From IMG/VR virus record IMGVR_UViG_3300037461_000655, positions 3,053 to 67,052 of that record: a DNA stretch of 64,000 bases; one strand, 5' to 3'. Both the position numbers and the translations under genes were made by a program. The DNA is from a virus. Taxonomy: Duplodnaviria; Caudoviricetes. The notes beneath the pieces are model-generated. The model was not told where the DNA came from, did not search any database, and was given only the letters and a program-made list of their open reading frames with translations. This document shows positions 1,058 to 64,000 of the stretch, in pieces. Within the stretch, counting starts at the first letter, position 1. Each line of letters opens with the position of its first letter.

Positions 1058-2364
1058 TTTGTACTCCCAAGATCAGCATCATTGATGAAGTCGTAGCGAC
1101 CCTGCTCCATGGCCTCGCACATGTCCGGATAGCGATTGCAGAAGCTGCATGTCGGATAATAGGGCTGATGGATATAAGTCCTGAGCCTCTCTCGTAGATC
1201 TGGAGCATCAATGTCAAGTCGATCCATCCCTGGATCAACCAATCCGATATTATGAAGCGCGACGCCCAGGTCACAAGGATAAATCTTCCCATTGCAAGCT
1301 TGAAGATTGCGGGGTGGCATGACACACGTTTCCTTGTCATACAGCATCTCACCAACGCTCTTCTTGCGATCATAGAGCGTGCTTGGCTTCACCCATTTCA
1401 ACATAGGATTGCCCAATGTGTAGGAAAGCCCCATGCTCTTTACGATTTCCACATTGGTATGGAACACCTCAAGCTGCCGTTCACTCAACACGCGCTGGTA
1501 ATTCCCGAAGTTGATGCTCAACCGTGGATCTCGGAAATACTCCAGCTTCCAAGGGTAGAGGGGAACCGTGCCAGAAGTAGGGAAGGATGCTAGTCCGAAG
1601 TTGTCGCACTCCGACAGTGCCTTGGCGATGAGATGAATTTCGGGATGCGCGAAGGTTTCTCCACCCATTACCGATACACCACCGATGCTATCGCATGCGC
1701 CGAGCCATGCCTTGATGTCCTTGCAGACCCGTTCAGTGGGATAGTTTACCTGACGATCCTTGGGGTAGCTGTTGATGTACTGAACGCAGTACTTGCAATT
1801 CAACGTACAGAGCGAGTTGACAATCACGCAGACATAGGTGAGGTCGATCCGAGGTCCTGGTTTAGGCTCAGTGCGTGCAGCTACGATGTTGCCCAGCCGT
1901 TCGCAACATATAAATCTACAGGAAAGCGGATCAATACACTTCGAAGCCTTCACACCAGTCTTGGACGAAAAAGGGCACATGGCGCCCATGTAGAGATACT
2001 CACCCTTGATGGCATTACTGAACCCAGCTTGGCGCAGTTGCTCCCATAGATTTGACTTCACGACATTGTTATTGATTGCCAAAATCACAACCGTTTCGGC
2101 AGGGTTCCAGTCACCCGTGAAAGGTTTCCGAACAATGGACCCATTCAAGCTCTTGAGCTCATCAGCACGTTCGTCCCAATAGCACGTCACGCCAATTTTC
2201 TTCTGGGTCAAGTAATCACCGATCTCCGCACCAAAGTTCGCGGCACCGAAGATGATCACATGGGGGAATGAATTGATGTATTCAAGGAGCCCTTCGGGAT
2301 CAGGGTGATTGTCAGGCTGTAGGGCTTTGGCGTAGAAGGTATCAAGATCAAAGGACAGAGGCAT
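1054..2364 (-). CDS. Radical SAM protein with N-terminal Rossmann-like (PglD_N-like) domain and Cys-rich C-terminus
   Basis: CxxxCxxC motif CTLNCKYC, GGE motif (VMGGETF), C-terminal C...NGKIYPC...CSFC; N-terminal VIIFGAANFG. Confidence 0.8.
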   Translation of the reverse strand: MPLSFDLDTFYAKALQPDNHPDPEGLLEYINSFPHVIIFGAANFGAEIGDYLTQKKIGVTCYWDERADELKSLNGSIVRKPFTGDWNPAETVVILAINNNVVKSNLWEQLRQAGFSNAIKGEYLYMGAMCPFSSKTGVKASKCIDPLSCRFICCERLGNIVAARTEPKPGPRIDLTYVCVIVNSLCTLNCKYCVQYINSYPKDRQVNYPTERVCKDIKAWLGACDSIGGVSVMGGETFAHPEIHLIAKALSECDNFGLASFPTSGTVPLYPWKLEYFRDPRLSINFGNYQRVLSERQLEVFHTNVEIVKSMGLSYTLGNPMLKWVKPSTLYDRKKSVGEMLYDKETCVMPPRNLQACNGKIYPCDLGVALHNIGLVDPGMDRLDIDAPDLRERLRTYIHQPYYPTCSFCNRYPDMCEAMEQGRYDFINDADLGSTK

Positions 2365-3433
2365 AGAGCACCGTTTCGGAGTAATCGTGGTGATGGTGGC
2401 GGAGATAGATCTTGTACTCAGGCACTAGCTCATGGAGGTATTGAGGGATCAGCCAGAGGTCCGTCATTTTGTGGTAAACACAGATGGCCAGGTCGGGCTT
2501 GTGGGTCTTAATGGCCTCTTTCGCACCTTTGAGCATCTCCAACTCAAAGCCTTCAATGTCGGCCTTAATGAACGTCACAGATCGACCTTGGAGATAGTCA
2601 TCGAGTGAGTAAAGGGGCACCTCTTCGCCCTTGCGTTCTGCGAGATTGTAGAAGCTATTCCCAGCGCCATTAGGATCAGAGTCTTTCATACAGAGATGTA
2701 ATGCACCACTGAATTCACCAAGGCCACCAAACTCAACATCAATTTTATCCATGGGTAGATCAAACTTCTTAGCCACATCCAACTTACGAGTAAGCACTTG
2801 AAGATATAATGCAGGAGTAGGCTCAAATGAAATGATTTTCTCAAACTGACCATTAGTTGCTTCCGCGAACTCCATCATGGTATCACCGGTGTAAGCTCCA
2901 GCATCAATGAAGACGTGGTTCTTCTGTTGGTGTTTCTGAAAGTCCATGCACCAGTACTGCTTGTCCTCTTGCACGATCTTAAAATATGCAGAATCCTGCT
3001 CATAATGAGCACGAAGAACATGGTAGAAAACATCACGAGACCAATCATCAGCGAGCATGTGGTATACGGCATCCAGACGGTGCAACACGGGAGGATAGAT
3101 GAACTCGCCAATCGTAGCAGACTCAAAAAAGTTCAATGTCTTTTTGATTTTTGTCTGAGCTTCTACTGTCTGCACAGCTACCACAACGTAAGCACCCAGC
3201 GGAATCCGTTTTGGTGAAAATACAGGAAGCCCATGAAACACCGTCCCATGCTTACTAAGATTATCATCTATAAAGCCGATCACTTTATAACCTAGATCAC
3301 GTAATGTGAAGTAGGCATATTTCCCACGGTCACCCGCGCAATAAACTACCATGGGCTGGTCAGGGAAATGGTAAGGCGGACGATTCTTGTGGATGTGTTC
3401 TTTCAGCTCATCCCAGCGCTTTTCAATGTTCAT
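2348..3433 (-). CDS. FkbM-family SAM-dependent methyltransferase with N-terminal Rossmann-like domain
   Basis: VFIDAGAYTGDT, IISFEP, FIKADIEGFE, KPDLAICVYH motifs; start moved to ATG 3433 (ATGA overlap with the GT2 stop). Confidence 0.9.
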   Translation of the reverse strand: MNIEKRWDELKEHIHKNRPPYHFPDQPMVVYCAGDRGKYAYFTLRDLGYKVIGFIDDNLSKHGTVFHGLPVFSPKRIPLGAYVVVAVQTVEAQTKIKKTLNFFESATIGEFIYPPVLHRLDAVYHMLADDWSRDVFYHVLRAHYEQDSAYFKIVQEDKQYWCMDFQKHQQKNHVFIDAGAYTGDTMMEFAEATNGQFEKIISFEPTPALYLQVLTRKLDVAKKFDLPMDKIDVEFGGLGEFSGALHLCMKDSDPNGAGNSFYNLAERKGEEVPLYSLDDYLQGRSVTFIKADIEGFELEMLKGAKEAIKTHKPDLAICVYHKMTDLWLIPQYLHELVPEYKIYLRHHHHDYSETVLYASVL

Positions 3434-4641
3434 AGTGGGAACTCCTTCCAATGGAAAATAGGCACCTCGGTATTGGCGCGCCGAAGACGTGCTTCAATCT
3501 GTTCTTTAGGACGACGTTCACTGGAGATAAGTACCACGTCAACATTGTGATCACAGAGCCACTCCGTGGGATAAATATGAATGCCGGACATGCGGCTACC
3601 TTGGCGCTTTACGTTATCGTCCAAGAAGCAAATCACTTTTGCTGCAGAAACAATGCAATCCTCTGCGAGGAGGTAACTGTTCAAAAACGACCCAAAGATC
3701 GCTACGGTCTTCCCCCTAAGGGAATGTGTCCTCCCATCAGGGATTGCAGGAAGACTGTATTCGGGTGGATACTGTGCTTCAACTTCTGCCAATTCGCTTA
3801 GTAGCTTTGCTGTTGGTTGATCTTTGGTCAGTGCATCTAATACACGATGCCGTAGCAAAGATGCACGGACCATCGGAACTACATCCAGCTTTCCCATGAT
3901 CTTACACATGCTCAACATCTCCTCATGCAGCGCGATGTCACTAGGTGTTATATCCAGCTGGAACGTTTCTGAGCCGGTGTGCACACGATAGTCAATCAGC
4001 GGCTCTGCAATGTAACCAACCCACCCATACATATTGCACTGGCATACCGTGAAGATATCGCCCAGTGGGCCAATGTGCACAGGCGGAGCACCACCTCCCC
4101 ATGGATGGCATTCTGCCTTAGCGCGGATTGGTGGAACGGCGGAAACTCGGATCATGTGCGTTGAGCATTTAATATGGAACCGCTCTTTCATATAAGCTTG
4201 GATGTACTCCCCTTGGCGAAAGATAATGTCCTGTGTATTGGTATCCTGACACTCTTGGGTAATGTGTCCATCCTCGTCAATGATCCTCGCATTGGCTCCT
4301 ACCAACGTCATCTCTGGGCACTTCTCCATCATTGCAATCTCACGTTCCACGATGGTTGGATGGAGAATATCATCATCATGCGTGTGGAGCACAAACTCAC
4401 CACGGGAGCGACGTAACCCTTCCTCCCATGCCACAGGACTCCCACCATGCACCGCTCGTCGCACATAAACAAGGCGGGGGTCTGTGAAGAGTTTGATGAT
4501 CTCCGAAGTGTTATCTGTGGAGCAATCATCCACCACGACAACCTCAATATCCTTGTAGGTTTGGTTAAGAATCGCCTGGATGCAGCCGTGTAGCATCTTA
4601 GCTCTGTTTCGGGTGGTTACCATCACGCTGACTTTGGGCAT
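3430..4641 (-). CDS. Family 2 glycosyltransferase with C-terminal Rossmann-like domain
   Basis: VSVMVTTRNR, EVVVVDDCSTDNT, HTHDDD (DxD-like), DYRVH; ATG 4641 overlaps the upstream TAA (TAATG). Confidence 0.88.
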   Translation of the reverse strand: MPKVSVMVTTRNRAKMLHGCIQAILNQTYKDIEVVVVDDCSTDNTSEIIKLFTDPRLVYVRRAVHGGSPVAWEEGLRRSRGEFVLHTHDDDILHPTIVEREIAMMEKCPEMTLVGANARIIDEDGHITQECQDTNTQDIIFRQGEYIQAYMKERFHIKCSTHMIRVSAVPPIRAKAECHPWGGGAPPVHIGPLGDIFTVCQCNMYGWVGYIAEPLIDYRVHTGSETFQLDITPSDIALHEEMLSMCKIMGKLDVVPMVRASLLRHRVLDALTKDQPTAKLLSELAEVEAQYPPEYSLPAIPDGRTHSLRGKTVAIFGSFLNSYLLAEDCIVSAAKVICFLDDNVKRQGSRMSGIHIYPTEWLCDHNVDVVLISSERRPKEQIEARLRRANTEVPIFHWKEFPL

Positions 4642-5726
4642 TACTTCACTCCCTTCTTCAAAGGCATTCCGAAGCTCGCGCACCATGCGGAAAATTCGTT
4701 ATACCGACATAAATAATTCCGGTTGATCCTATTGACATCAATGCGCTCGAACATCTCACGGATAGACGCCTCGATAACCGCAAGGGGCTCACCAGGCATC
4801 AATGGTATGCCCATATAATCACAGGCGTCGCGTGATCGCATGTCGGTGTTGGTAGTGATCGCAGGAACACCTGCGTTCATCGCAATCACTGACCCATGGC
4901 ACCGAGTTCCCACCATGCAGTGACAATGCTTAGAAATGTGCCGCTTCCATTCATCAGGGTTCATGAAGAAGTGTGTGAGTCCTCCCAGGTAAGCATCTGA
5001 GGTTGGATTATGGAGTTGGCAAATTAGGTTCATGTCATCGTCACCTTGCACATAGTGATGAACGCGCTCGGTTATGGGCTCATAGACCATCTTACCATTC
5101 AACCCTATCCGCAAGGTTTTGCCTTCATCCTGGAGGAACGGTTGTCGGATGAGCCTACCTGGCCCCATTTCGAAATTACTAGGACAGCCTACAGCCTTCA
5201 CATTGGTTAGCCCTGCATCGCACAGGATGCGCTCAGTGATATGTCCACGTGTCCCGATGCTGAAAGCTCTATCGCCCAGCAATTCAAATAGGTGCCGCTT
5301 GATGGGTGTGAGTTTGTCCCAAATGGTGGTGTCGTAGGGTTGTGGGAATGGCATAATGGAGTTCGCGCATAAGCTCATCACAATGAGCTTGGTCTTGTGC
5401 GGATCAATCGCTTCTACGTAACGGCTTACGGAGTCGTACCAGTTATCCTCGCCCTCTGGATCTGTGTAATAGGTTTCTCTGAGGTAGTCTTGGAGGACCA
5501 GTATTACATGGCTAATGTCGCACAAGCTTTTCCGGAATCGGAGCAGCTCACGTGAATTACCATTACCAGGGGAGTTGAAAAAGGCTGTATTAGTTTCATT
5601 CAGGCCAAGCAGCTTCTCAATGGAGTAAGCGATGTAGTAGTTTCCACTGTTCCCATTAGTCTCGTTGAACCATAGCGGGTCCAGTGGTGATCGTGTGCTG
5701 AAGTTGCGATTGAGCAGTGCGTACAT
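4641..5726 (-). CDS. Polysaccharide pyruvyl transferase family protein
   Basis: N-terminal GNSGNYYI, SIGTRGHITERIL, VGCPS and VGTRCHGSVIAMNAGVPA patterns; ATG 5726 overlaps the NeuB stop. Confidence 0.65.
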   Translation of the reverse strand: MYALLNRNFSTRSPLDPLWFNETNGNSGNYYIAYSIEKLLGLNETNTAFFNSPGNGNSRELLRFRKSLCDISHVILVLQDYLRETYYTDPEGEDNWYDSVSRYVEAIDPHKTKLIVMSLCANSIMPFPQPYDTTIWDKLTPIKRHLFELLGDRAFSIGTRGHITERILCDAGLTNVKAVGCPSNFEMGPGRLIRQPFLQDEGKTLRIGLNGKMVYEPITERVHHYVQGDDDMNLICQLHNPTSDAYLGGLTHFFMNPDEWKRHISKHCHCMVGTRCHGSVIAMNAGVPAITTNTDMRSRDACDYMGIPLMPGEPLAVIEASIREMFERIDVNRINRNYLCRYNEFSAWCASFGMPLKKGVK

Positions 5727-6799
5727 CACAAACCTCTGTTTTCAATGTGCGCCCGAAGCTTCGGGTCACGTGAGTAATCATTATCCAGATGGCCAATGGT
5801 CAGTGGATCATCCTTACGAAGTGAACGGATCAGCATCTCGCAGGAAAGGTGTTCTCGATTGCAAAGTTGCCCTTTCTGAAGGGGAACAGCCAGATAAAGA
5901 TCGCCTTCTTGGAGCACATGGCCCACTTCGAGGTCCCGCGTGGCATAGGCCCCACGGACCAGCGCATCAAGGTACTCAATCTCTTTACGAGGTGGAAGTC
6001 GCTTTTCGCAGCCTGGTGCACCGCACATCTCCTTGGCCTTGGCCCAAGCTTTGAACCAAGCATCTACTTGATGAGGCAAGGAGCAATAAGGGGAAACTGT
6101 GACACCATCGGCATTTATGTCTACATGGCGTTCATAGGTCCGTGCGCCCTTTGCCACAGCAATCGCAATGCTAGTCTGCCAGTCTGTGTACTCATGAGTG
6201 GAGAGGCCGATAACGTGATCGGGATAGCGATTCCGCAGAAAGTCAATCTGGTTTAGTTCTAGATCTTCATCTGCTGTTGGGTAGAGTGCAACGCAGTGAT
6301 TAATTGCCAAGGGAATGTGACGGTTTTTGAAGAACTTCACCACATTGTCGATATCTGCAAGAGAGGTTCCACCTGTTGAGACAATCACTGGGAGTTTAGT
6401 GGATGCCATCTTGCGGAGTAGTCCCCAATCAGCCACATCAGAAGAGGCAATCTTTAGGACCTCACACCCGATCTCCACCGCAAGTTCGACACTCCGCTCA
6501 TCAAAGCACGTCGCACAGACCATACAGCCCTCTTTGCGAATCGCATCAGCAAAGGTATGATAGGCTTCGCGGGGGAGTTGCGTAGCAGTGATCTTCTTGA
6601 TATAACGGCACTCGCTTGTACAAAAGTCCTTATGCACAAATGTGCTCACATCCCGAAGTTGAAGCTTGATAGCAGCGCGCACACCATTGTAATAGATGAT
6701 CCGCCCGAAGTCTTTGATGATTTTTAGCCCACGGTCTATGCTGCCTAAATGGTTGTTCGCCATCTCCAACACGAAAAGGTCTTCAAAGATTCGGGTCAT
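5726..6799 (-). CDS. neuB: NeuB/SpsE-family nonulosonate (sialic-acid-type) synthase with C-terminal SAF-like domain
   Basis: VLEMANNHLG, AIKLQ, LKIASSD, PVIVSTGG, INHCVALYP, VIGLSTHE, GARTYERH motifs. Confidence 0.88.
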   Translation of the reverse strand: MTRIFEDLFVLEMANNHLGSIDRGLKIIKDFGRIIYYNGVRAAIKLQLRDVSTFVHKDFCTSECRYIKKITATQLPREAYHTFADAIRKEGCMVCATCFDERSVELAVEIGCEVLKIASSDVADWGLLRKMASTKLPVIVSTGGTSLADIDNVVKFFKNRHIPLAINHCVALYPTADEDLELNQIDFLRNRYPDHVIGLSTHEYTDWQTSIAIAVAKGARTYERHVDINADGVTVSPYCSLPHQVDAWFKAWAKAKEMCGAPGCEKRLPPRKEIEYLDALVRGAYATRDLEVGHVLQEGDLYLAVPLQKGQLCNREHLSCEMLIRSLRKDDPLTIGHLDNDYSRDPKLRAHIENRGL

Positions 6800-7005
6800 T
6801 TGATTATCTCGTGGGTAGTTTTGACGATGTAGTAGAGATTCGCTTCAGTGCCAGGCATGCCTTCGCAGAGATGAGACAAGGCTGTGCGTGCATCAGTAAG
6901 ATTCCGCGCAGAGTCCCAATACTCTCCAGGGAATGACACGCCTTCGGTGCCTTTATAGATGGCCCATTCTGTGCCTTTTTCTTTTTCATTTCTCCGCCTC
7001 CCCAC
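6796..7005 (-). CDS. Small hypothetical protein, start uncertain (possibly frameshifted)
   Basis: Ends in an ATGA overlap with neuB. The ATG at 6989 with the best RBS (GGGGAGG) is in another frame. Confidence 0.4.
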   Translation of the reverse strand: MGRRRNEKEKGTEWAIYKGTEGVSFPGEYWDSARNLTDARTALSHLCEGMPGTEANLYYIVKTTHEIIK

Positions 7006-7048
7006 AGAAAACGAATGCGTAATTTATTCATAGCCCTTCCTGAAAATC

Positions 7049-7288
7049 TTACGACCCCGACCGTGACCGCGACCACGACCACGACCACGACCGCGACCAC
7101 GACCGCGACCACGACCACGACCACGACCGCGACCACGACCACGACCCCGACCGTGGCAACGCCCATGACCGCGACCGCGACCGCGACCGCGACCGCGACC
7201 ACGACCACGACCGCGACCGCGACCGTGACCGTGACCGTGACCGCGACCGTACTATGCTAACTCTACTACTTGCCATAGCAACCAACAT
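7049..7288 (-). CDS. Ser/Arg/Trp dipeptide-repeat protein (SRSRSWSWSRS...)
   Basis: ATG 7288 overlaps the upstream TGA (TGATG); open frame to TAA 7049; same strand as the surrounding operon. Confidence 0.6.
   Translation of the reverse strand: MLVAMASSRVSIVRSRSRSRSRSRSRSWSWSRSRSRSRSRSWALPRSGSWSWSRSWSWSWSRSWSRSWSWSWSRSRSGS
7052..7249. repeat. Hexanucleotide tandem repeat, minus-strand unit TC(G/A)-(C/T/G)GG, about 33 units with one interruption
   Basis: Directly visible cgacca/cgaccg/tgaccg run. Confidence 0.95.
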
Positions 7289-54742: not shown

Positions 54743-55060
54743 TTGACTATCCAAGTTGGGCAGGAACCAATCCTGACGACCCCTACGACACCAATCCATA
54801 CGGGGTTCTATGGCCTGTGGATGAAAATCCTCCACGCACTCAAAGAGGCAGTGACAGGGCGAGACAACCAGACCCATGATCTGGGGCGCTGGAGCTGGCT
54901 CACCTGTACCATAGCGATCCTCGCCCATGATGCCTACCTGCTTCAGCATGGTAGCGCACCCAACATCAAGGACCTTGCAATTGCCCTATCAGCCATCGTG
55001 GTGGCACATGGGGTTGCGCTAGGGCTTAAGTCCTCGACTGAACCCGGAGGCACATCATGA
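54743..55060 (+). CDS. Putative holin (two TM segments)
   Basis: DNQTHDLGRW, hydrophobic segments; inside the lysis cassette; TTG start uncertain. Confidence 0.55.
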   Translation: MTIQVGQEPILTTPTTPIHTGFYGLWMKILHALKEAVTGRDNQTHDLGRWSWLTCTIAILAHDAYLLQHGSAPNIKDLAIALSAIVVAHGVALGLKSSTEPGGTS

Positions 55061-55686
55061 TCCCTCGCAAATGGCTACTCTACCTTGTGGGCGCAGGCAT
55101 AGGCATTGGTCTGATTTACGGCGGCATCGCAGGCTATGAGCGCTGGAAATTGTACAAAGCAGATCAACATCAACAACAGGCGGTAGTGCATCATGAAACA
55201 GGGATTAGTCAGGCGGCACAGGGTCAAGCAGCTGCCCAGCAGGGTGCGAGTGGTATGGCACAAGGGCAGGCGCTCCAGGCAAAGCTTGATGCCAGAGACA
55301 AGGAAGTGGCACGACTCAAGGCAATCTTGGCAAAGCTTAAGTCAGGCAATCAGTCTGCTCCTGACATTACTCCTAGCATTTCAGATCCTGCTCCTATGGT
55401 GGCTGATGACCTAAAGGATCAGATCATTGCTGAGCTGACCGAAGAGGTCGCGGACCTGAAGCTTCAGAGCTTCAACTATAAGACTTCGGCAGAACAGTAT
55501 CGAACTTCCTCAGAACGCTATAAAAGTGCTTATGAAGAAGAATGTAAGTCCCATGCTCTTGACAACATCGCCAATGAAGCGAAGCTCGCCGCAGCCAAGG
55601 CTGCTGGCTGGAAGATCGGAATGATCCGACTCGGTGAGGGTGCGGTGATTGGCGGCGTATTAGGCTACGCCACAGGGAGACGATGA
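55057..55686 (+). CDS. Putative spanin-like protein (N-terminal TM, coiled coil, hydrophobic Gly-rich C-terminus)
   Basis: WLLYLVGAGIGIGLIYGGI, long heptad region, GAVIGGVLGY at the end. Confidence 0.5.
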   Translation: MIPRKWLLYLVGAGIGIGLIYGGIAGYERWKLYKADQHQQQAVVHHETGISQAAQGQAAAQQGASGMAQGQALQAKLDARDKEVARLKAILAKLKSGNQSAPDITPSISDPAPMVADDLKDQIIAELTEEVADLKLQSFNYKTSAEQYRTSSERYKSAYEEECKSHALDNIANEAKLAAAKAAGWKIGMIRLGEGAVIGGVLGYATGRR

Positions 55687-56039
55687 TGAATACGTTAGCA
55701 CTTGATGTAGCTACTTGGGACCTCGAACTCAACACAGTAGGGGATATCAAGGTGAACACCAATGGTCTTGCAATTGCGCAGGATGTCGCAAGTGCAATTA
55801 AGCTCTTCGCAGGGGAACTGTGGTATGACAAACTCCTAGGCATTCCTTATTTTGAGCAGGTGCTCGGGAAACCGTATGCACAGTCCCTTGTCCAAGGGCT
55901 AGTTAACGATGCAGCTCTGACGGTGCCTGAGGTCGTTGCAGCACAAACTGATCTAGCAAGCATTCTAACTGCACGAAAGATCACAGGGTCCTGTCAAGTT
56001 ATTGATGTTACCGGACAAGCACTTAACGTTCAATTCTAG
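55683..56039 (+). CDS. Baseplate wedge protein (gp25-like)
   Basis: TL.LD..TWDL.L...G.I...AIAQDVASAIKLF.GE.WYD...GIPYF...LG. Confidence 0.8.
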   Translation: MMNTLALDVATWDLELNTVGDIKVNTNGLAIAQDVASAIKLFAGELWYDKLLGIPYFEQVLGKPYAQSLVQGLVNDAALTVPEVVAAQTDLASILTARKITGSCQVIDVTGQALNVQF

Positions 56040-56047
56040 GAGACCCT

Positions 56048-57277
56048 ATGGCCACTTCGGTTCCACCCCCTGTCATCACGGACACTGGCTATGAAATGCC
56101 AGAAGAGGCCACAATTCTTGCTGCGGTGTTGTCTGATATTGATGCTGCCTTTGGTGGCGGGCTCAATCAGGAACTGTCTACGCCACAAGGGCAGTTAGCC
56201 TCATCTCTTGCTGCGATCATCGCTGATAAAGATCGGTGTTTCCTATCCTACGTGAACCAGATTGATCCCCAGTATGCACAGGGTCGAATGCAGGATGCAA
56301 TCGCATCCCTTTACTTTTTAAGCAGGATTCCTGCTCGATCTACTACAGTGATTTGCACTTGCACAGGATTAGAAAACACCGTCATCCCAGCAACCACCGC
56401 ACTTGCCAAGGACACTGCTGGAAACATCTACGCATGCACTGTGGGGGGAACGATTGATGCAACTGGCTCCATTGAATTGGAGTTCTACAATGTGGTCCCA
56501 GGCCCTACGGCTTGCCCAGCAGGCACGCTGACGGCCATTTATGGCTCCATTCCTGGGTGGGATACCATTACTAATGCTGCTGACGGTGCATTAGGTAATG
56601 CAGTAGAGACATCTCAGGAGTTTGAAGCGAGACGTTATGCATCTGTCTCAATCAATTCCCTAGGCAGTATCTCTTCTATCTATGGAGCTGTCGCAGCCTC
56701 CGGTGCCGATCTTGATCCTCCCAATATTCCGCTAGATGTGTATGTGGTTGATAATCGTAATGACATTGCTACTGAGGTCGGTGGGGTAACACTACTTCCC
56801 CATTCGGTTTATGTTGCAGCTGCGGGTGGTGATCCTGATTCAATTGGGATGGCTATTTGGAAGAAGACCTCAGTTGGTTGTAATTTCAACGGAGACACCA
56901 CAGTGGTGATTGAGGACACATCAGGTTATGATGCGCCCTACCCTACCTACACCGTAAAATATCAAGTTCCAGATGACTACGCTATTAAGTTCCGTGTCAG
57001 CATTGCCTCAAGTCCTAGCTTACCAGCAAACATTGTAACGCTGGTAAAGAATGCCATCGTAGATGCCTTTGCAGGGCTGGACGGGGGTTCACGCGCAAGG
57101 ATTGGTGCGGACATTTATGCAAGTCGATTCTACTATCCCGTTTCAACGTGCGCAACAGGGGTAGCAATCGTGTCGATCCTCGTAGGACACACTACCGCGA
57201 CTGCGAACAGCGTGGCAGTTAACATTGACCAATATCCAACCTTAACTGTTAGTGATATCACGGTATTCCTCGTATGA
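56048..57277 (+). CDS. Baseplate J-like wedge protein
   Basis: TPQGQLA.S, GRMQDAI, E...EFEARR..SV..N, VGC.FNG. Confidence 0.88.
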   Translation: MATSVPPPVITDTGYEMPEEATILAAVLSDIDAAFGGGLNQELSTPQGQLASSLAAIIADKDRCFLSYVNQIDPQYAQGRMQDAIASLYFLSRIPARSTTVICTCTGLENTVIPATTALAKDTAGNIYACTVGGTIDATGSIELEFYNVVPGPTACPAGTLTAIYGSIPGWDTITNAADGALGNAVETSQEFEARRYASVSINSLGSISSIYGAVAASGADLDPPNIPLDVYVVDNRNDIATEVGGVTLLPHSVYVAAAGGDPDSIGMAIWKKTSVGCNFNGDTTVVIEDTSGYDAPYPTYTVKYQVPDDYAIKFRVSIASSPSLPANIVTLVKNAIVDAFAGLDGGSRARIGADIYASRFYYPVSTCATGVAIVSILVGHTTATANSVAVNIDQYPTLTVSDITVFLV

Positions 57278-57930
57278 GAGATGTTGACGAAACCATCATC
57301 AGTCAATACGCAAATAGCCCGCGTCTCCTCCAGATCATTCGTGACATGGATGAAGCGATTGATCCTAGAACAGACCTCGATGATTTTTATAATAACGTCT
57401 GGAACCTGGCTACAGCACAAACATGGGGCTTGGATGTGTGGGGTCGGATTGTCGGGGTTTCGCGAGTGCTACGGTTACCAGGAGCCTTAACCAGCGTGTT
57501 TGGGTTTTCTGAAGCGACAGGATGTCAGCCCTTCGGACAAGCCCCGTTCTATTCACCACAGACAAACTTCACACCCTACATACTACCTGACGAAGCTTTT
57601 CGTGCTATGATCTACGTTAAAGCTCTAGCAAACATCTCAGGCTGTTCCTTTGATACATTGAACCGAGCTATGCAGCAGATCTTCCTAGACTATGGACGCT
57701 GCTACGTGCACAGCAATGGTTTGATGAAGATGCGGTATGTGTTTGAGTTTGTAGTCCCACCAACTCAGTTAGCTATTCTTCTGAATTCTAATGTTCTACC
57801 ACGCCCAACCGGTGTAAAGCTCTTTGTCCTAGAGTGCATTCCTTCTTCAACCTTCGGTTTCAATGGTTCGGGCATGCAGCCCTTCGGCCAAGGAACCTTC
57901 TCTACTGGAGAGACCAATGTCAGCGCCTAG
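57274..57930 (+). CDS. DUF2612-family baseplate wedge protein
   Basis: TIISQYANSP, WNL.TA..WGLD.WGRIVG..R, KALANI, LPRPTGV. Confidence 0.85.
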   Translation: MRDVDETIISQYANSPRLLQIIRDMDEAIDPRTDLDDFYNNVWNLATAQTWGLDVWGRIVGVSRVLRLPGALTSVFGFSEATGCQPFGQAPFYSPQTNFTPYILPDEAFRAMIYVKALANISGCSFDTLNRAMQQIFLDYGRCYVHSNGLMKMRYVFEFVVPPTQLAILLNSNVLPRPTGVKLFVLECIPSSTFGFNGSGMQPFGQGTFSTGETNVSA

Positions 57931-59062
57931 CTTGCCTGATTTCTTTACCATCCCTTTCGCTGACTCCGGCGCTAAGAACGTCATCCCTACAGCGTCCGCT
58001 CCTCCACTAGCCTCTTTGACGGATGGCTTCCCTCCGGAGACAATGCAGCCTCTTGAGAGTGGAGGCGTTCCTCCCGCAGGTGAGGACTTCAACGGTATCC
58101 TGAATTGGATTACCAAATGGCTAGCCTACATGGGCGCAGGAGGGCGTGTCCCGTTTAATTCTGCTTTGTCAACTGCTATGGGAGGCTATTCCGCAGGCAT
58201 GATCGTACAGTCTGATGATGGGGCCAGTGAGTACGTCTCCCTTATCGACAGCAACACCTATGACCCAAATACTTCTTCAAATGTTGGGCCTTACTGGGCA
58301 CCTTATTCGGGAGCTGCATCCTGTAATGGCATGTATGCTATTGACACAGGGACTGCGAATGCTTACATCATTGCAGTGAATCCACCGCTTACTGCTAACG
58401 CGGATGGCCGCCGAGTGGCATTCAAAGCCACCGTTAGTAACACAGGAGCCTCAACGCTTAATGCGGGTGGTGGTGCTACCAATCTTAGACGTAATGATGG
58501 CACCGCAATGGTATCAGGTGACATTCTTGCAGGAGCTATTTACGATTGTATTTATGATGCAAGCTCCAATACCTTCATCATGACAACCCCTGTCATTTCA
58601 CAATACGCCCCACTTTATGCGCCTGAAGTGCCTACAGGAACAATTCTGAGCTTTGCTAGTTCTGTCGCTCCAAGTGGTTACCTATTGTGTGATGGTGCTG
58701 CTGTCTCACGTACAACTTACGCAGCCCTCTACTCATTAGTGGGAAATTTGTATGGGTCAGGCGACGGTTCAACTACCTTCAATGTCCCTGATTTACGTGG
58801 GCGTGTTGCGATGGGCGCAGGCCAAGGAGCTGGGCTAGAGAACCGAGTACTTGCAAATACACACGGCACTGAAACGCATACCCTTTCCATCGCAGAAATG
58901 CCCTCGCATACCCATGGGCTCCAAGTGATAACAGGGTCTGGGGCTTATGACAATGGCTCATATTACGGCAATTACCCAGGTAATACAAGTGCAGCAGGCG
59001 GTGGTGGAGCCCACAATAACATACAACCGTCACTCGTTCTTTCCGCTATCATCAAGACTTAA
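57917..59062 (+). CDS. Tail fibre protein with C-terminal collar domain
   Basis: PFA.SG.KN.IP, GFPP.TM.P...GG.PP.G.DFNG.L; collar VPTG.I..F......GYL.CDG..VSRTTYA.LY...G...G.GDGSTTFNVPDLRGR; ATG 57917. Confidence 0.88.
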   Translation: MSAPSLPDFFTIPFADSGAKNVIPTASAPPLASLTDGFPPETMQPLESGGVPPAGEDFNGILNWITKWLAYMGAGGRVPFNSALSTAMGGYSAGMIVQSDDGASEYVSLIDSNTYDPNTSSNVGPYWAPYSGAASCNGMYAIDTGTANAYIIAVNPPLTANADGRRVAFKATVSNTGASTLNAGGGATNLRRNDGTAMVSGDILAGAIYDCIYDASSNTFIMTTPVISQYAPLYAPEVPTGTILSFASSVAPSGYLLCDGAAVSRTTYAALYSLVGNLYGSGDGSTTFNVPDLRGRVAMGAGQGAGLENRVLANTHGTETHTLSIAEMPSHTHGLQVITGSGAYDNGSYYGNYPGNTSAAGGGGAHNNIQPSLVLSAIIKT

Positions 59063-61064
59063 GCGAAGTTATCAGCTCGATGATCTGCTCCCGGACCTTG
59101 TCTGGGAGCGGTCGTTTGAGTAGTTCTTCGATATATTGGCGGATGTTCTCGTGTTGGTGAAGGGCTACCAGGGCTTGTATGAGGAGGAACAGCCCTTTCC
59201 ATTGTGCCCACTCTGGCTCTAAAAATTCTGAGGTAGATGGATCAGGCTTCGGCGCATAGGCACAGGCTAAGGCCCAAGCTCGTGCAAGCGCTGGGAGTCC
59301 GTTATCAAGGGCATATTGGGCCAGCTCACCCCACACCTCAACACGAGTGGGGCACATAGTCACAGCTTGCAGATAAGCGTTTGTGATGTCTGTGGCATCG
59401 CACTGCTGCATCGTAAGAATACGCCCACAGGTCAACAGAGTATAGTAAGCCATACCCTTTTGAGGGCCTGGGTTCTCTGTAAACCTGCTAAATGCTGCGA
59501 GTGCTTTGGCAAGCCACTGGTCACGGTCTTCTCCTGGTTCAGTGGAACGGGCCTTGTTCCAGCATGCCTCACCAAGAAAGAAATAATCACGCAGCTCAGT
59601 ATTTGTGCTCAGGGTCTCGATATCATCCTCTAGCTTCCTTGGATTCTTGGATCGCTGCCCATCCTGCTCTGTGCGAATGTGGGTAGCACTTATTGGATTT
59701 TCAAAACTGCCAAGGACCATAGCCGATGGAACTTCGCCATGGATAAAGGGTGCTTCATGCAATCTACCTTTCCACTCCCATCCAAGAATGTTGCGAATGA
59801 AGGTAAGACGTTTGTTAAGGCGATTAGTGATGCTGACCATTGGTACCACAACTCCAGGTGTTATGGTACGGGCTAACGTTTCAAGCACTTCATGCAAATC
59901 AAATTCACCCCATTCATCAGCATCCATCAAGAGGAGCCATTCACAGTCTGTGGTCCTGGCTAATGCGTAAGCTTCATTGCGGGCTTCTGAAAAATCCTTA
60001 CGCCAACGGATATGCTTGCGATGGTATTTGATGTCGTTCCCAAGAGCCCAATGACGGGCGAGATCATCCACATCCCCCTCTTCATTCGTTTCGCTGCTGT
60101 CTACAATGATAAGATCAGTGATTAGGCCATACGTAGAGTCAAGACACCGTTCTAATACATGTGTCTCATCCGCACCTTTATCATTCTTCACAATCATTGT
60201 GAGACCGATCCGAGGTTTAGGATACTGCGGTTTCATCGTCTCCAAGATGCGCAGTAACTCCTCGGGTGAGGATGATTCTCCACTTGCTTTGTCCTGAAGT
60301 GCTTGTATCTTCTGCGCAATACCAAGCATTGCAGCCCAATCTCGGTATGTGATGCTATGGCCATGGTCGAGCCAATACTGCCAGAGCGCATAATGCGCAC
60401 GGAGGAAGCCACCTTTGAGAAGGCCCTCGGTGCTGCTCATTTGATCAGTATGAGTGCGCAGAGAGACTGTGGGCTGCGCAAGGTAGGCTTGATCACCAAG
60501 TTTACTCAATCGCTGCCACCAGAACCAGTCACGAGCTAATGCGCCTTCACCGGGATAGTCTGCTGAGAAGTCAAGATCAGTACGACGGAACATTCCCGAG
60601 GGCCAGGGGACATTACAATCGATGAACAGGCGGTTGAATGGCGCTGCATTAGAGAGCACATCCATTGGGGCAATACGGCCCATACTCAGGAACCCTAAGA
60701 CCACCCCCATTCTGTCGTGCCCCTGTACAGAGGAGAAGACAAAAGCTAGCTCCGGGTTTTCTTCAAGGACACGAGCACGTCGGGCAAGAGAGTCGTCTCC
60801 CAGCAGCCAATCATCATCAGGGAGACTACAGATGTAGTCACCAGTTGCGACACTGAAGAGGTGAGGATCTCCTTTCTGAAATAGGCGGATACATCCGTGC
60901 TTGCTTGCGTAGTCAGCAAGGACGGCAGGCGTATTGTCCGTACTGCCATCATCAAGAATGAGTAGCTCAAGATCAACTCCTTTCTGGTTGAGGACAGTGC
61001 CGATAGACTCAGGTAGCCAATGGGCGCGGTCTTTCGTGTACATGCAGACGCTTACTTTGGACAT
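59052..61064 (-). CDS. Tandem glycosyltransferase: GT2, second GT2 (SunS-like), TPR-like helical C-terminus
   Basis: Domain 1: VSVCMYTKDR, LILDDGSTDNT, LPDDD. Domain 2: IGLTMIVKN..E...LERCLDS, WRKDFSEARN, LLMDADE, W.GRLHE. Helical repeats follow. Confidence 0.88.
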   Translation of the reverse strand: MSKVSVCMYTKDRAHWLPESIGTVLNQKGVDLELLILDDGSTDNTPAVLADYASKHGCIRLFQKGDPHLFSVATGDYICSLPDDDWLLGDDSLARRARVLEENPELAFVFSSVQGHDRMGVVLGFLSMGRIAPMDVLSNAAPFNRLFIDCNVPWPSGMFRRTDLDFSADYPGEGALARDWFWWQRLSKLGDQAYLAQPTVSLRTHTDQMSSTEGLLKGGFLRAHYALWQYWLDHGHSITYRDWAAMLGIAQKIQALQDKASGESSSPEELLRILETMKPQYPKPRIGLTMIVKNDKGADETHVLERCLDSTYGLITDLIIVDSSETNEEGDVDDLARHWALGNDIKYHRKHIRWRKDFSEARNEAYALARTTDCEWLLLMDADEWGEFDLHEVLETLARTITPGVVVPMVSITNRLNKRLTFIRNILGWEWKGRLHEAPFIHGEVPSAMVLGSFENPISATHIRTEQDGQRSKNPRKLEDDIETLSTNTELRDYFFLGEACWNKARSTEPGEDRDQWLAKALAAFSRFTENPGPQKGMAYYTLLTCGRILTMQQCDATDITNAYLQAVTMCPTRVEVWGELAQYALDNGLPALARAWALACAYAPKPDPSTSEFLEPEWAQWKGLFLLIQALVALHQHENIRQYIEELLKRPLPDKVREQIIELITSLKS

Positions 61065-61288
61065 TTAGGACTCCTAACTGTTAAATTTCTATATTTCGCA
61101 ACACTAGTCTCACACGCTGCAAGGGCGTGTGTAAGGGTTTGTGAGGTGCCTTTACGTAGCACATTGGTAATCTTAAAATGAACAGCCCAGCAATATCCTG
61201 TAGGGGTTGACTGCACCCAACCATCAGCATTGTCTTTTGCTAAGTGAAAAGACATTGCAGTTACTTCCCATTGAAGACAGACTTTCAT
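61052..61288 (-). CDS. Small hypothetical protein
   Basis: ORF track; ATG 61288 coupled to the upstream mini-ORF. Confidence 0.5.
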   Translation of the reverse strand: MKVCLQWEVTAMSFHLAKDNADGWVQSTPTGYCWAVHFKITNVLRKGTSQTLTHALAACETSVAKYRNLTVRSPKCPK

Positions 61289-61344
61289 CGGTTCACCCTT
61301 GCCTTATCGATTAATTCATAGTCAGTGCCATCAATTCGGATCAT
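61285..61344 (-). CDS. 19-aa mini-ORF MIRIDGTDYELIDKARVNR
   Basis: ATG 5 nt after the AAGGGAG of junction element 1; TGA overlaps the next ATG. Confidence 0.4.
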   Translation of the reverse strand: MIRIDGTDYELIDKARVNR

Positions 61345-61349
61345 CGCGT

Positions 61350-61366
61350 CTCCCTTGTGGTGTTAG
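61350..61366 (-). repeat. 17-bp junction element copy 1, CTAACACCACAAGGGAG
   Basis: Identical copies at 61350, 62113 and 63421. Confidence 0.95.
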
Positions 61367-61381
61367 ACCGCCTAATCCGTG

Positions 61382-61630
61382 TTAGGCATCCAATCCGTGG
61401 TCTCGGAGGGTTTGCGTGTATGCAGCGTCGTACGCAGCTTGTCCATTAGCCACGGCGCGAGCCACAATATCACCAGCAACCCATAGCGGCTCGCCTTTCA
61501 GCATAACCAGCACATCCCCCGATTTTGCGCTTGGTTTTGGCAACACCCAGCCTAACCCATCGCTCAACCCGGAATCAGCCGTGACTTCTTCCTTCGTTTC
61601 ATTGTTCTCGTCCATTGTTTCGTCCTCCAT
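61382..61630 (-). CDS. Small hypothetical protein that starts inside attC site B
   Basis: ATG 61630 or 61615 with GGAGG; ADSGLSDGLG is encoded by the attC arm; stop TAA lies in GCCTAAC. Confidence 0.6.
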   Translation of the reverse strand: MEDETMDENNETKEEVTADSGLSDGLGWVLPKPSAKSGDVLVMLKGEPLWVAGDIVARAVANGQAAYDAAYTQTLRDHGLDA

Positions 61631-61674
61631 ATTTGCCGATTAAACGGCTGGTCCGGTTAGCTTGGTCGTTAGGC
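61550..61674 (+). mobile_element. Integron attC-type recombination site B (125 bp)
   Basis: GCCTAAC-CCATC-GCTCAAC-C-CGG-A-ATCAGCCG ... CGGCTGGT-CCG-GTTAGC-TTGGTC-GTTAGGC: R''/L''/L'/R' boxes, 5- and 6-nt spacers, three extrahelical bases. Confidence 0.8.
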
Positions 61675-61890
61675 GCTCTTTCGCCGGTTCCATCTCCGCA
61701 CAGCCAGGGTCAACATCGAGCGCTTGTCGCCACGCTCGTAACCCTCTCCGACATAGAATGTTTCCAGAATGAGGCCGCACTTAAAACACTCTATCTGCCA
61801 GCTCCCGTTAGCCGCCAGCTCGTCTGGTAGATCAATCAATTCTGGTTCTCTGCCACATAGCGGGCAAGGTTTGAGCTTCGCTGTTCCCAT
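61669..61890 (-). CDS. Lar-like (restriction alleviation) zinc-ribbon protein
   Basis: LKPCPLCG...WQIECFKCG...AVRRWNRR; stop codon inside the attC B core. Confidence 0.75.
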   Translation of the reverse strand: MGTAKLKPCPLCGREPELIDLPDELAANGSWQIECFKCGLILETFYVGEGYERGDKRSMLTLAVRRWNRRKSA

Positions 61891-61907
61891 CTCTCCACCA
61901 CCGTCGC

Positions 61908-62005
61908 GCCTAACCAGGCGCTCAACTCGGACCCGTTAGCCACGGTCCGCTTTCATCATCCAAGGCCCAGTCTGGCTAACGGGCCGGTTAGCTCCATCGT
62001 TAGGT
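61908..62005 (+). mobile_element. Integron attC-type recombination site A (98 bp)
   Basis: GCCTAAC-CAGGC-GCTCAAC-T-CGG-A-CCCGTTAGCCA ... TGGCTAACGGG-CCG-GTTAGC-TCCATC-GTTAGGT. Confidence 0.85.
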
Positions 62006-62107
62006 GGCCTCATTCAGACGGCGCATGAGGGTTTGAAATGCCAAGGCAGCACATTGCGGAACCTGGCCGTTGCCAATAGCGTGGAGTCGCTCCACCCCAA
62101 AGGCCAT
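62000..62107 (-). pseudogene. 35-codon C-terminal remnant of a C5 cytosine DNA methyltransferase
   Basis: MAFGVERLHAIGNGQVPQCAALAFQTL matches the motif X end (RL.A.GNGQVP..AA.A) of phage Dcm-like enzymes. Confidence 0.7.
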
Positions 62108-62112
62108 CACTA

Positions 62113-62129
62113 CTCCCTTGTGGTGTTAG
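62113..62129 (-). repeat. 17-bp junction element copy 2
   Basis: Contains the upstream gene's TAA and the downstream RBS. Confidence 0.95.
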
Positions 62130-62359
62130 GATTTGGAAAACATCGCGCATTTTCCTGCGTCGTCTTGAGCATCGACGGGGATTAACATGTCGAGAATGAC
62201 CTTCCCTGGAGGCTCTTTCTCGTTGCAAAGATCGTAGGCATAGAGAAAATGTGCGTCCATTATGGGACAGCCTCCATCTTTGTCTTGGTGAATGCAGCGT
62301 GAACAATACCTAGCGGCATAATAGGCTTGTTCGAGACCGTTCGAAAAATATGCCATCAT
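62126..62359 (-). CDS. Small Cys-rich phage hypothetical protein (YFSNG...YC.RC.H...CP)
   Basis: RBS GGGAG before ATG ATG at 62359/62356; stop codon inside junction element 2. Confidence 0.7.
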   Translation of the reverse strand: MMAYFSNGLEQAYYAARYCSRCIHQDKDGGCPIMDAHFLYAYDLCNEKEPPGKVILDMLIPVDAQDDAGKCAMFSKS

Positions 62360-62389
62360 TTCTCCCAAAGTGGACAATCAAACGCGGGT

Positions 62390-63142
62390 TCACAAGTTTT
62401 CACGTAGCGCCTCCGCCTGAAACCTTTCGGCTAGTCGCAGCGCTTCCGCACGAGTGAAATCAAAAGCCCTCACTCTTTGTTCGCATGTCTCGCTTCCATC
62501 ATTCGGGAATTGTCCCAAATTGCTATCTCGAATCCCAATCGCGTCCCACTCGTCAACTGGTTTCCATAGGCATCCCATTCTCACCCACGGGCACCCTTCC
62601 GCAGTAGCGAATGCCCAGCATTCATACGGATAGAGCCCCGAGAACACTGACAGACTATGTATTTTTATTGCATCGCCAAGATCGGTCCCGCGAAGATCGG
62701 TCCCGCTAAGAACGGCCCCGCGAAGAACGGCATCGCTAAGATCGGCCCGGCGAAGATCGGCCCGGCTAAGATCGGCCCCGCTAAGAACGGCCTCGCTAAG
62801 ATCGGCCCCGCTAAGATCGGCATCGCTAAGATCGGTCCCGCTAAGAACGGCCCGGCTAAGATCGGCCCCGCTAAGAACGGCATCGCGAAGATCGGCATTG
62901 CCAAGATCGGCCCCGCTAAGAACGGCATCGCGAAGATCGGCCCGGCTAAGAACGGCCCGGCTAAGATCGGCCCGGCTAAGATCGGCCCCGCTAAGATCGG
63001 CATCGCTAAGATCGGCCCCGCGAAGATCGGTCCCGCGAAGATCGGTCCCGCTAAGAACGGCCCGGTTTCCGTTCCCATTCTCTAGCCATTTTTCGTGTTT
63101 AGCCCGTACGGTTTGGAGCTCGTCTAGTGTGTAACGTTTCAT
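62390..63142 (-). CDS. Pentapeptide repeat protein with a C-terminal accessory domain
   Basis: 26 A(D/V)L(S/R)x units; H.KWL N-terminus; VRMGC...EW C-terminus. Confidence 0.92.
   Translation of the reverse strand: MKRYTLDELQTVRAKHEKWLENGNGNRAVLSGTDLRGTDLRGADLSDADLSGADLSRADLSRAVLSRADLRDAVLSGADLGNADLRDAVLSGADLSRAVLSGTDLSDADLSGADLSEAVLSGADLSRADLRRADLSDAVLRGAVLSGTDLRGTDLGDAIKIHSLSVFSGLYPYECWAFATAEGCPWVRMGCLWKPVDEWDAIGIRDSNLGQFPNDGSETCEQRVRAFDFTRAEALRLAERFQAEALRENL
62672..63061. repeat. 15-bp tandem repeat, 26 units, minus-strand consensus (G/A)CC-G(A/T)T-CTT-(A/C/G)GC-NNN
   Basis: Directly visible. Confidence 0.95.
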
Positions 63143-63205
63143 TTCTGCGCCTCCGCGATCATCTTCTGGTTCTGTGGTGAGATTTTTTTCGTGGTTGCGA
63201 TTATT

Positions 63206-63418
63206 TCAACGAGGTGGCGTAGTGCTGATTTTCGTGTGGGCGTGTTGGGGAGGCTCTGGCGCGGCCTTGCGGAGTGAGTGGACGAGTTTTCGAATCAACA
63301 TAGCCATGTCGTCCATCTCTGCCACGCGGGCAGCGATATGGTCCAGCGCTTTATGGCATTCATCGCACGGATGCTTTTTAGACATTGCTTTGTGTAAGAT
63401 CGCTATATCATCCATCAT
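63206..63418 (-). CDS. Small hypothetical protein (MLIRKLVHSLRKAAP motif), C-terminus possibly truncated
   Basis: ATG follows junction element 3. Confidence 0.6.
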   Translation of the reverse strand: MMDDIAILHKAMSKKHPCDECHKALDHIAARVAEMDDMAMLIRKLVHSLRKAAPEPPQHAHTKISTTPPR

Positions 63419-63420
63419 CC

Positions 63421-63437
63421 CTCCCTTGTGGTGTTAG
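63421..63437 (-). repeat. 17-bp junction element copy 3
   Basis: Three nt downstream of the upstream TGA and directly before the next start. Confidence 0.95.
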
Positions 63438-63440
63438 TCG

Positions 63441-64000
63441 TCATAGCATCTCGCGCCCTACAGGGCCTCCTTTTTGGAACCATGCGGTATCCGCGTGTAG
63501 CTCCTGTATCGCATCAGGAGTCACATCCCGCAGGAGTTCATCAGTGGAATAGCGCTTAGTATGCTCCCGGAGTCGCAAGATCTCCTTCTCTAGTTGATCC
63601 CTGCTAACGAGGAGTGCATCACGCTCTTCTCGCACCTGCCGAAGCTCCTCCGCGTTGCATGTGCAGTTCTCCACGCGGGCGCGGAGTTCTTGGACCTCAT
63701 TCAACAAATTCCGCAAAAATCCAGTTTCAATATAGAGTCCAGTCCTTTCTGTCCCATCGTTCATATCCACTATGAGACTGTGTTCGGCATTGGCATACCC
63801 ACGCACCTGTTCCATGAGAGCTGAATCTTGGACATTGATCCGAGAGAATTCATTTTTCAATCGCTCTAGCTGTCTTTCGGCATCTTCCAGTTGGCACCGC
63901 TGGCACGGCTCACCCAGTGGACAGTTGCGCCTGCCGCCCGCATCCCATAACTTGCCAACCATCTGGCAGTCATACTCGCGCGTTTCCCTGCCCTCCAACT
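63441..64000 (-). CDS. Coiled-coil hypothetical protein, probably 5'-truncated by the window edge
   Basis: The frame is open to the edge; the track's TTG at 63998 need not be the real start. Confidence 0.55.
   Translation of the reverse strand, partial: LEGRETREYDCQMVGKLWDAGGRRNCPLGEPCQRCQLEDAERQLERLKNEFSRINVQDSALMEQVRGYANAEHSLIVDMNDGTERTGLYIETGFLRNLLNEVQELRARVENCTCNAEELRQVREERDALLVSRDQLEKEILRLREHTKRYSTDELLRDVTPDAIQELHADTAWFQKGGPVGREML

Follow-up and report, generated by a model that had tools for sequence, protein, structure and literature searches.

Inverted attC cassettes in a complete integrase-less myophage, and a mirror-image cassette layout general in phage arrays

The 64,000-nucleotide (nt) stretch of DNA analysed here (hereafter the window, to which positions refer unless stated otherwise) belongs to a tailed phage (Duplodnaviria; Caudoviricetes) available as IMG/VR record IMGVR_UViG_3300037461_000655, and contains two integron attC sites that delimit two small gene cassettes. 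The canonical layout, in which an open reading frame (ORF) of the top strand is followed by its attC, was not found at this locus: both cassette ORFs are on the attC bottom strand, and this mirror-image layout is general in phage arrays. The phage genome itself encodes no integrase. We consider it probable (ca. 0.7) that both cassettes are functional, that they represent a mirror-image class adapted to phages and that they would be moved by a host IntI acting in trans.

Both are bona fide attC sites of the integron type, with the following composition.

61550 to 61674 (125 nt), top strand plus: attC site 1, GCCTAAC-CCATC-GCT(C)AACC ... GGTTAGC-TTGGTC-GTTAGGC
61908 to 62005 (98 nt, entirely intergenic), top strand plus: attC site 2, GCCTAAC-CAGGC-GCT(C)AAC ... 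GTTAGC-TCCATC-GTTAGGT

The core boxes R'' (RYYYAAC) and R' (GTTRRRY) are GCCTAAC and GTTAGGC in site 1 and GCCTAAC and GTTAGGT in site 2. In both, the inner box L'' reads GCT(C)AAC, with an extra C relative to L' (GTTAGC), and the spacers are asymmetric, with 5 nt on the '' side and 6 nt on the ' side (CCATC and TTGGTC in site 1, CAGGC and TCCATC in site 2). A previous sequence-only reading of the window, made without database searches, had recognized this full grammar at the same two places, together with three extrahelical bases set 4 nt apart in each site. When the arms were aligned by hand, this last pattern was recovered in the '' arm of site 2 (C, T and A, 4 nt apart) and in a similar, less regular form in site 1. 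The bottom strands, folded as single-stranded DNA, were more stable than their shuffles, with z = -2.8 for site 1 and -4.6 for site 2. A scan for the attC grammar over the entire 67-kb genome detected matching L boxes at these two sites only, the three further core-pair candidates being all devoid of L boxes.

A covariance model (R1), which was trained on 34 diverse bacterial sites with the window left out and in which the L'' bulge was modelled, scores site 1 at 57.4 bits and site 2 at 56.7 bits (E about 1e-12) on the plus strand, whereas its best minus-strand score is about 8 bits. A covariance model applied to both strands and the folding of the bottom strands were among the checks proposed in the sequence-only reading. 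As a control, R1 detected all six attC of a class 1 integron (estX, psp, aadA2, cmlA1, aadA1 and qacL) with 16 to 50 bits, always on the gene strand and immediately 3' of the corresponding gene, which validates both the model and its strand call. No attC other than these two was found by R1 in the window and in genome bases 1-6000, and an Rfam scan of positions 55000-64000 returned two sub-threshold snoRNA chance matches and no attC-type match, an outcome with no bearing on the nature of the two sites. Across 123 distinct R1-matched sites, nearly all from phage contigs, 94% of the alignment cells are paired and compensatory changes occur in 15 of 19 pairs, in an alignment that was fitted to R1 and is hence somewhat favourable to structure; with shifted partners, the paired fraction drops to 20-53%.

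Taking the G/TT of R' (the slash marking the crossover point) as the limit between adjacent units, the locus resolves into two cassettes and a flanking ORF.

61382 to 61668 (287 bp): cassette 1, from the TTAGGC that follows G61381 to the G of R' of attC site 1; carries the orphan ORF
61669 to 61999 (331 bp): cassette 2, from the TTAGGC of R' of attC site 1 to the G of R' of attC site 2; carries the Lar-like gene
61382 to 61630, minus strand: orphan ORF, 82 residues from the ATG at 61630 or 77 residues from the ATG at 61615
61669 to 61890, minus strand: Lar-like restriction-alleviation gene, 73 residues; PF14354 with 34.3 bits (cut-off 28.6), phrog_599
62000 to 62110, minus strand: 36-residue ORF to the right of the array, stop at 62000-62002 in R' of attC site 2

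The two cassette genes end within core boxes: the TAA stop of the Lar-like gene (61669-61671) is the TTA of R' of attC site 1 and that of the orphan ORF (61382-61384) is the TTA of a GTTAGGC located at 61381-61387. The orphan ORF occupies cassette 1 from the attC loop to the core, reading across L'' and R''. Its likely start is the ATG at 61615, with that at 61630 as an alternative; the former lies in the loop of attC site 1, as does a GGAGG located 8 nt upstream on the minus strand. The product of this ORF has no Pfam or PHROG match, and a comparison with 5.8 billion proteins returned no homologue other than itself. The 36-residue ORF, which has no Pfam or PDB match, is probably the remainder of the original target region. 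Every gene in the array region is on the minus strand. The attC top strand being plus and the ORFs minus, as well as the three stop codons located in cores, had been noticed in the sequence-only reading and are borne out here. That reading had also proposed a cargo of small accessory genes made up of a Lar-like gene, a methylase fragment and a pentapeptide-repeat gene. The Lar-like assignment holds, the methylase label of the 36-residue ORF was dropped, and neither this ORF nor the pentapeptide gene is bounded by attC on both sides, the cassettes so delimited being those of the orphan ORF and of the Lar-like gene only.

The phage genome is complete. The record is 67,052 nt long, of which the window covers bases 3053-67052, and its first and last 127 nt are identical, indicating a complete circle of 66,925 nt; the IMG/VR and CheckV ratings likewise give a completeness of 100% with terminal repeats. 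The genome encodes a large terminase with 41% identity to TerL of Aaphi23, a tail-fibre protein with a collar domain and baseplate proteins, which identify a real tailed phage. Searched against PF00589 and TIGR02249, the complete genome gave no match even at E = 1, while the same searches were positive in all 14 control genomes; this complete myophage is therefore integrase-less. The absence of an integrase from the window, reported in the sequence-only reading, thus extends to the whole genome; this excludes a phage recombinase encoded outside the window, one of the two sources which that reading had envisaged, and leaves a host IntI in trans. With two attC sites 234 nt apart and no integrase in the genome, the locus is a cluster of attC sites lacking an integrase (CALIN) and not a complete integron, in which an integrase would be adjacent.

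The array belongs to a run of small minus-strand genes that extends from ca. 61,000 to the window end and on into genome bases 1-1,700, and that is flanked by a GT2 glycosyltransferase gene and a nucleotide-sugar epimerase gene. The guanine-plus-cytosine (GC) content of the phage is 49.8%. Protein searches in IMG/VR with the products of the Lar-like gene, the orphan ORF, the GT2-TPR gene and a 185-residue ORF revealed no relatives of the phage. A 67,024-nt contig, JAOQIC010000019.1 (GCA_025490955.1), is 100% identical over the 8,234 nt compared, which comprise the array region and its flanks; since this contig was deposited within the assembly of a bacterial metagenome-assembled genome (MAG), the phage genome has there been binned as part of a bacterial genome.

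A 24-base box pattern (CCTAAC-N5-GCTCAAC-N58-88-GTTAGC-N6-GTTAG) was used on IMG/VR and on bacterial contigs, and retrieved 41 IMG/VR contigs and at least 120 bacterial contigs. Chance palindromes were rejected as a source of these matches, because by our estimate chance alone would yield about 0.1 occurrences of the pattern among the bacterial sequences searched. The bacterial matches correspond to cassette arrays, mainly of Burkholderiales (Roseateles, Pseudaquabacterium, Rubrivivax and others), Nitrosomonas and Holophagae (Geothrix, Holophaga). IntI above the curated TIGR02249 cut-off was found in all eight genomes tested and adjoins the array in two of them. The 41 IMG/VR loci contain 198 R1 sites, organized as same-strand arrays of up to about 25 sites. 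IntI occurs in one of the 41 viral records and 38 are without any tyrosine recombinase; several are complete, two of these with TerL homologues.

Gene orientation was compared between the two groups. In an earlier test on bacterial arrays of the same site type, all 41 long inter-site ORFs considered were top-strand ORFs. A symmetric test, in which a strand was called when its longest ORF was at least 1.5 times as long as that of the other strand, gave 31 top, 2 bottom and 3 ambiguous calls for bacterial cassettes versus 6 top, 45 bottom and 48 ambiguous for phage cassettes (18 IMG/VR contigs). A strand test relying on GC periodicity also favours the bottom strand in phage arrays (63 versus 20); it is uninformative for low-GC bacterial cassettes, for which reason the ORF-length test was used instead. 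Bottom-strand ORFs that end in an R' core in other phage arrays include two N6/N4 DNA methylases (E = 8e-51), NinB, FtsK-gamma and members of many PHROG families, so that these bottom-strand genes are real and phage-type. The same arrangement is found in the phage genome MW202573, in which the R1 sites at 2069-3738 are on the minus strand and all genes annotated there on the plus strand.

These data bear on the possibility that the sites are inert relics, i.e. that a stretch of a host array was acquired by illegitimate or homologous recombination and that its attC have no function in the phage. The presence of two sites only, with no integrase, and the proximity of their sequences to those of chromosomal arrays would fit such an origin. 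However, the genes are opposite in strand to bacterial cassette genes and are phage-type (Lar-like), the loop of attC site 1 is adapted to bear a ribosome-binding site and a start codon, and complete phages that are unrelated, with up to about 25 sites, show this adapted layout too. The boxes and extra bases are furthermore intact and not decayed, and we regard relics as unlikely.

Of 49 phage sites, 39 have a reverse ribosome-binding site followed by an ATG in their loop, versus 12 of 156 bacterial sites, most of the latter 12 being false positives of the regular expression in fully paired hairpins. This frequency in phages, the same signals in attC site 1 and the conservation of the stems by covariation could also be explained if the hairpins acted as RNA, in the bottom-strand transcript, to control the translation, processing or stability of the downstream gene, their likeness to attC being a matter of ancestry. 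Pairing alone does not need the exact R and L boxes, the 5/6 spacer asymmetry or the bulges, yet these are identical to those of bacterial sites bound by IntI; attC site 2 and many short phage sites have no start codon at all, and the exact cassette duplication described below is a DNA event. As a replacement for cassette mobility, RNA hairpins are quite improbable, but such a role can coexist with the mobility in trans that we favour.

Several observations point to recombination and exchange at such sites. First, attC site 2 is 91% identical to an attC of the metagenome arrays L184 and L185, with a homology that runs from 3 nt before R'' to L' and flanks that are unrelated on both sides. Second, a homologue of the Lar-like gene (67% identity) on contig L173 likewise terminates within the R' core of an attC (65 bits) that is inverted, and its upstream and downstream neighbours are unlike those found here. 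Third, a complete 67.9-kb phage, IMGVR_UViG_3300048576_000125 (hereafter L010), contains a 367-nt duplication with 100% identity (6177-6543 and 6887-7253) which ends exactly at GTTAGGC cores and which therefore corresponds to one whole cassette. One of the copies abuts GTTAGGTC-GCCTAAT-TGAAA-G/TTAGGC, a mini-palindrome of the form CCTAA-N7-TTAGG, next to an xis/int module. Excision of a cassette followed by its re-insertion at an attI-like site would produce such a duplication. Finally, five of six attC sites of virulent phages have been shown experimentally to recombine with IntI1 (Qi et al. 2023, PMC9892861).

That the homology between the phage and L184 is limited to attC might alternatively mean that general or phage homologous recombination uses the conserved 20-25-nt boxes as short stretches of homology for modular gene exchange between co-infecting phages, with no integron integrase involved, and the five copies of an unrelated 17-nt element found in the region (see below) could act in the same way. 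This would leave unexplained the conserved asymmetry, the bulges and the uniform orientation, as well as duplication end points located exactly at the G/TT core, and is in our view highly improbable. Taken together, functional cassettes moved by a host integrase account better for the intact boxes and bulges, for the uniform orientation and for ends located exactly at G/TT than do relics, RNA hairpins or short homologies.

In the cassette class that we favour, the gene lies on the attC bottom strand, so that each attC is placed upstream of its own gene, to which it can provide the ribosome-binding site, the start codon and the first codons, the gene ending at the TAA of the G/TTAGGC core. During infection, the host integron integrase would catalyse in trans the gain, loss and reshuffling of cassettes, with the crossover at G/TT of the folded bottom strand. 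The identity of the sites, the limits of the cassettes, the orientation of the genes, the lack of a phage recombinase and the generality of the layout are established here, and the activity of the sites and the action of a host IntI upon them are predicted; a host IntI in trans is plausible because identical boxes occur in the IntI-bearing arrays of Holophagae and Burkholderiales, to which the duplication at G/TT cores in L010 adds. As for the inversion, three ideas may be put forward. In the first, the bottom strand would be the non-template strand and so be free to fold while it is transcribed. In the second, phage cassettes would remain unexpressed in bacterial arrays, and bacterial cassettes in phage arrays, as a result of the inversion. 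In the third, it would allow maximal compaction, with attC doubling as the 5' region of the gene. A more complete scenario would be that tailed phages of integron-bearing bacteria possess their own mirror-image pool of small early or anti-defence genes, in which attC is a portable translation-initiation module. The cassettes of this pool would be exchanged between phages by the host IntI and enter at attI-like CCTAA-N6-7-TTAGG sequences, and the inversion would prevent phage and bacterial pools, which have a common recombination machinery, from being expressed in one another's arrays. We put this scenario forward tentatively, with the balance somewhat against it.

Several points weigh against mobility driven by a host integrase. 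The inversion has no established mechanistic reason, and the locus has only two attC sites. In L010, P4-type integrases and an excisionase are encoded beside the array, so that its duplication cannot be cleanly attributed to IntI and the enzyme involved is uncertain. The only other assembly compared with the phage at the DNA level is the 100% identical one mentioned above, and in a third contig the gene order is unchanged. The sites used for the training of R1 were retrieved with a box pattern derived from the window, and box matches are to that extent partly by construction, which is mitigated by the class 1 integron control. Finally, the GC content of the phage is below that of the candidate hosts and of their arrays, and the host is so far a set of candidates.

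Among these candidates, the similarity of the sites would designate a chromosomal integron of the Holophagae type (Acidobacteriota) or of the Burkholderiales type. Site 1 (125 nt) is 74% identical to the 124-nt attC sites of which the chromosomal arrays of Holophagaceae are made up, and site 2 is closest to sites found in arrays that also hold 124-nt sites, and in an Acidobacteria MAG. In Holophagaceae and Geothrix genomes (L044, L104, L122, L138 and L147), dense chromosomal arrays were observed, with up to 16 sites per 8 kb and uniform attC of about 124 nt with pyrimidine-rich loops. Each of the five Acidobacteria genomes tested, among them L044, L122 and L147, encodes IntI. In Roseateles aquae, the chromosomal integron integrase (L164, 1501-2445) shares 56% identity with IntI1, the class 1 integrase found on clinical plasmids.

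The integrons of Holophagae and Burkholderiales share with the phage sites identical R'', L'', L' and R' boxes, the bulge pattern and length classes of 98-99 and 124-125 nt. They differ in having IntI next to the arrays and genes on the top strand, as indicated above. Besides, the Burkholderiales sites have a centre that is almost fully paired up to a small loop and no translation signals, and the 124-nt Holophagae sites a longer, pyrimidine-rich central part. Class 1 attC (aadA1, aadA2, cmlA1, qacL and others) follow the same grammar, R1 detecting both types, but are shorter (60-70 nt); each is preceded by its gene on the same strand, and intI1, attI1 and Pc are adjacent. Some reverse cassettes are found in Vibrio superintegrons, for instance toxin-antitoxin cassettes with their own promoters, as exceptions within a forward array. 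Like the phage cassettes, they have a gene that is antisense to the attC top strand; they need a promoter of their own, whereas reversal is the norm among phage cassettes, and transcription by the phage would run across the array.

Virulent phages were already reported in 2023 to harbour attC clusters that lack an integrase (PMC9892861). These phage CALINs resemble the present locus in having at least two attC but no intI, and a cargo of small genes, some with anti-restriction functions. The orientation of the genes is not remarked on in that paper, although MW202573, which is one of its examples, is inverted. A full-text search of the literature revealed no description of a systematic inversion or of translation starts borne by attC. 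In comparison with that paper, the present analysis makes explicit the inversion, the placing of the stop within the core and that of the start within the loop, and shows this layout to be general. Integrons have been treated as a bacterial gene-capture system; if the mechanism proposed here is correct, integron recombination would also be a route for the exchange of accessory and anti-defence genes among phages, and the arms race between phage and host would come to include the activity of the integron integrase during infection. The inversion offers a simple sequence criterion for separating phage from bacterial cassettes in metagenomes and raises the question of what has led phages to place their coding sequences on the recombinogenic strand. 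The window provides a minimal, two-cassette example, in which one cargo gene has an identifiable role (Lar-like anti-restriction).

The left end of the array and the junctions between neighbouring genes contain further short elements.

61362 to 61387, plus strand: left array boundary, GTTAGAC-C-GCCTAAT-CCGT-G/TTAGGC, a core-like repeat followed by a mini-palindrome CCTAA-N6-TTAGG
61350 to 61366, plus strand: 17-nt junction element CTCCCTTGTGGTGTTAG, copy 1; on the minus strand, a TAA stop followed by AAGGGAG (ribosome-binding site)
62113 to 62129, plus strand: junction element, copy 2
63421 to 63437, plus strand: junction element, copy 3
Genome positions 216 to 232 and 426 to 442, beyond the window end: junction element, copies 4 and 5

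The left boundary ranks third among the R1 matches of the window (12.4 bits), with R'' and R' alone, and may be either an attI-like entry site or a collapsed attC. The boundary of the L010 array has a matching structure. The genes read towards the mini-palindrome (61370-61387) and not away from it, and it is unlike the candidate attI located beside the intI of Holophagaceae, which shows no such palindrome. Since this candidate lacks the palindrome and the structure is supported by two phages only, an attI-like role can be suggested only weakly.

The five copies of CTCCCTTGTGGTGTTAG are confined to a 3-kb accessory stretch and each terminates in a GTTAG core; the copy at genome position 426 is followed by a second GTGTTAGG. 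These elements, which are not attC sites according to R1, separate neighbouring genes in place of attC, and the 36-residue ORF and the pentapeptide gene are delimited by this stop/ribosome-binding-site junction. Four single matches to the 17-mer were found in IMG/VR, which by our estimate is near chance. The elements may be homology patches for the exchange of modules or docking points for cassette insertion. After the copy at 61350, the minus strand contains a 19-codon mini-ORF (MIRIDGTDYELIDKARVNR, 61286-61345) whose stop overlaps the start of a 78-residue ORF (61052-61288) in an ATGA, which suggests that the two are translationally coupled. The pentapeptide-repeat protein is encoded on the minus strand at 62390-63142 and comprises 250 residues (PF00805, E = 1.5e-47). 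Its gene is at the DNA level an array of about 24 units with a periodicity of 15 nt, and comparable repeats are found in the genomes of Acinetobacter and Manatee Spring phages.

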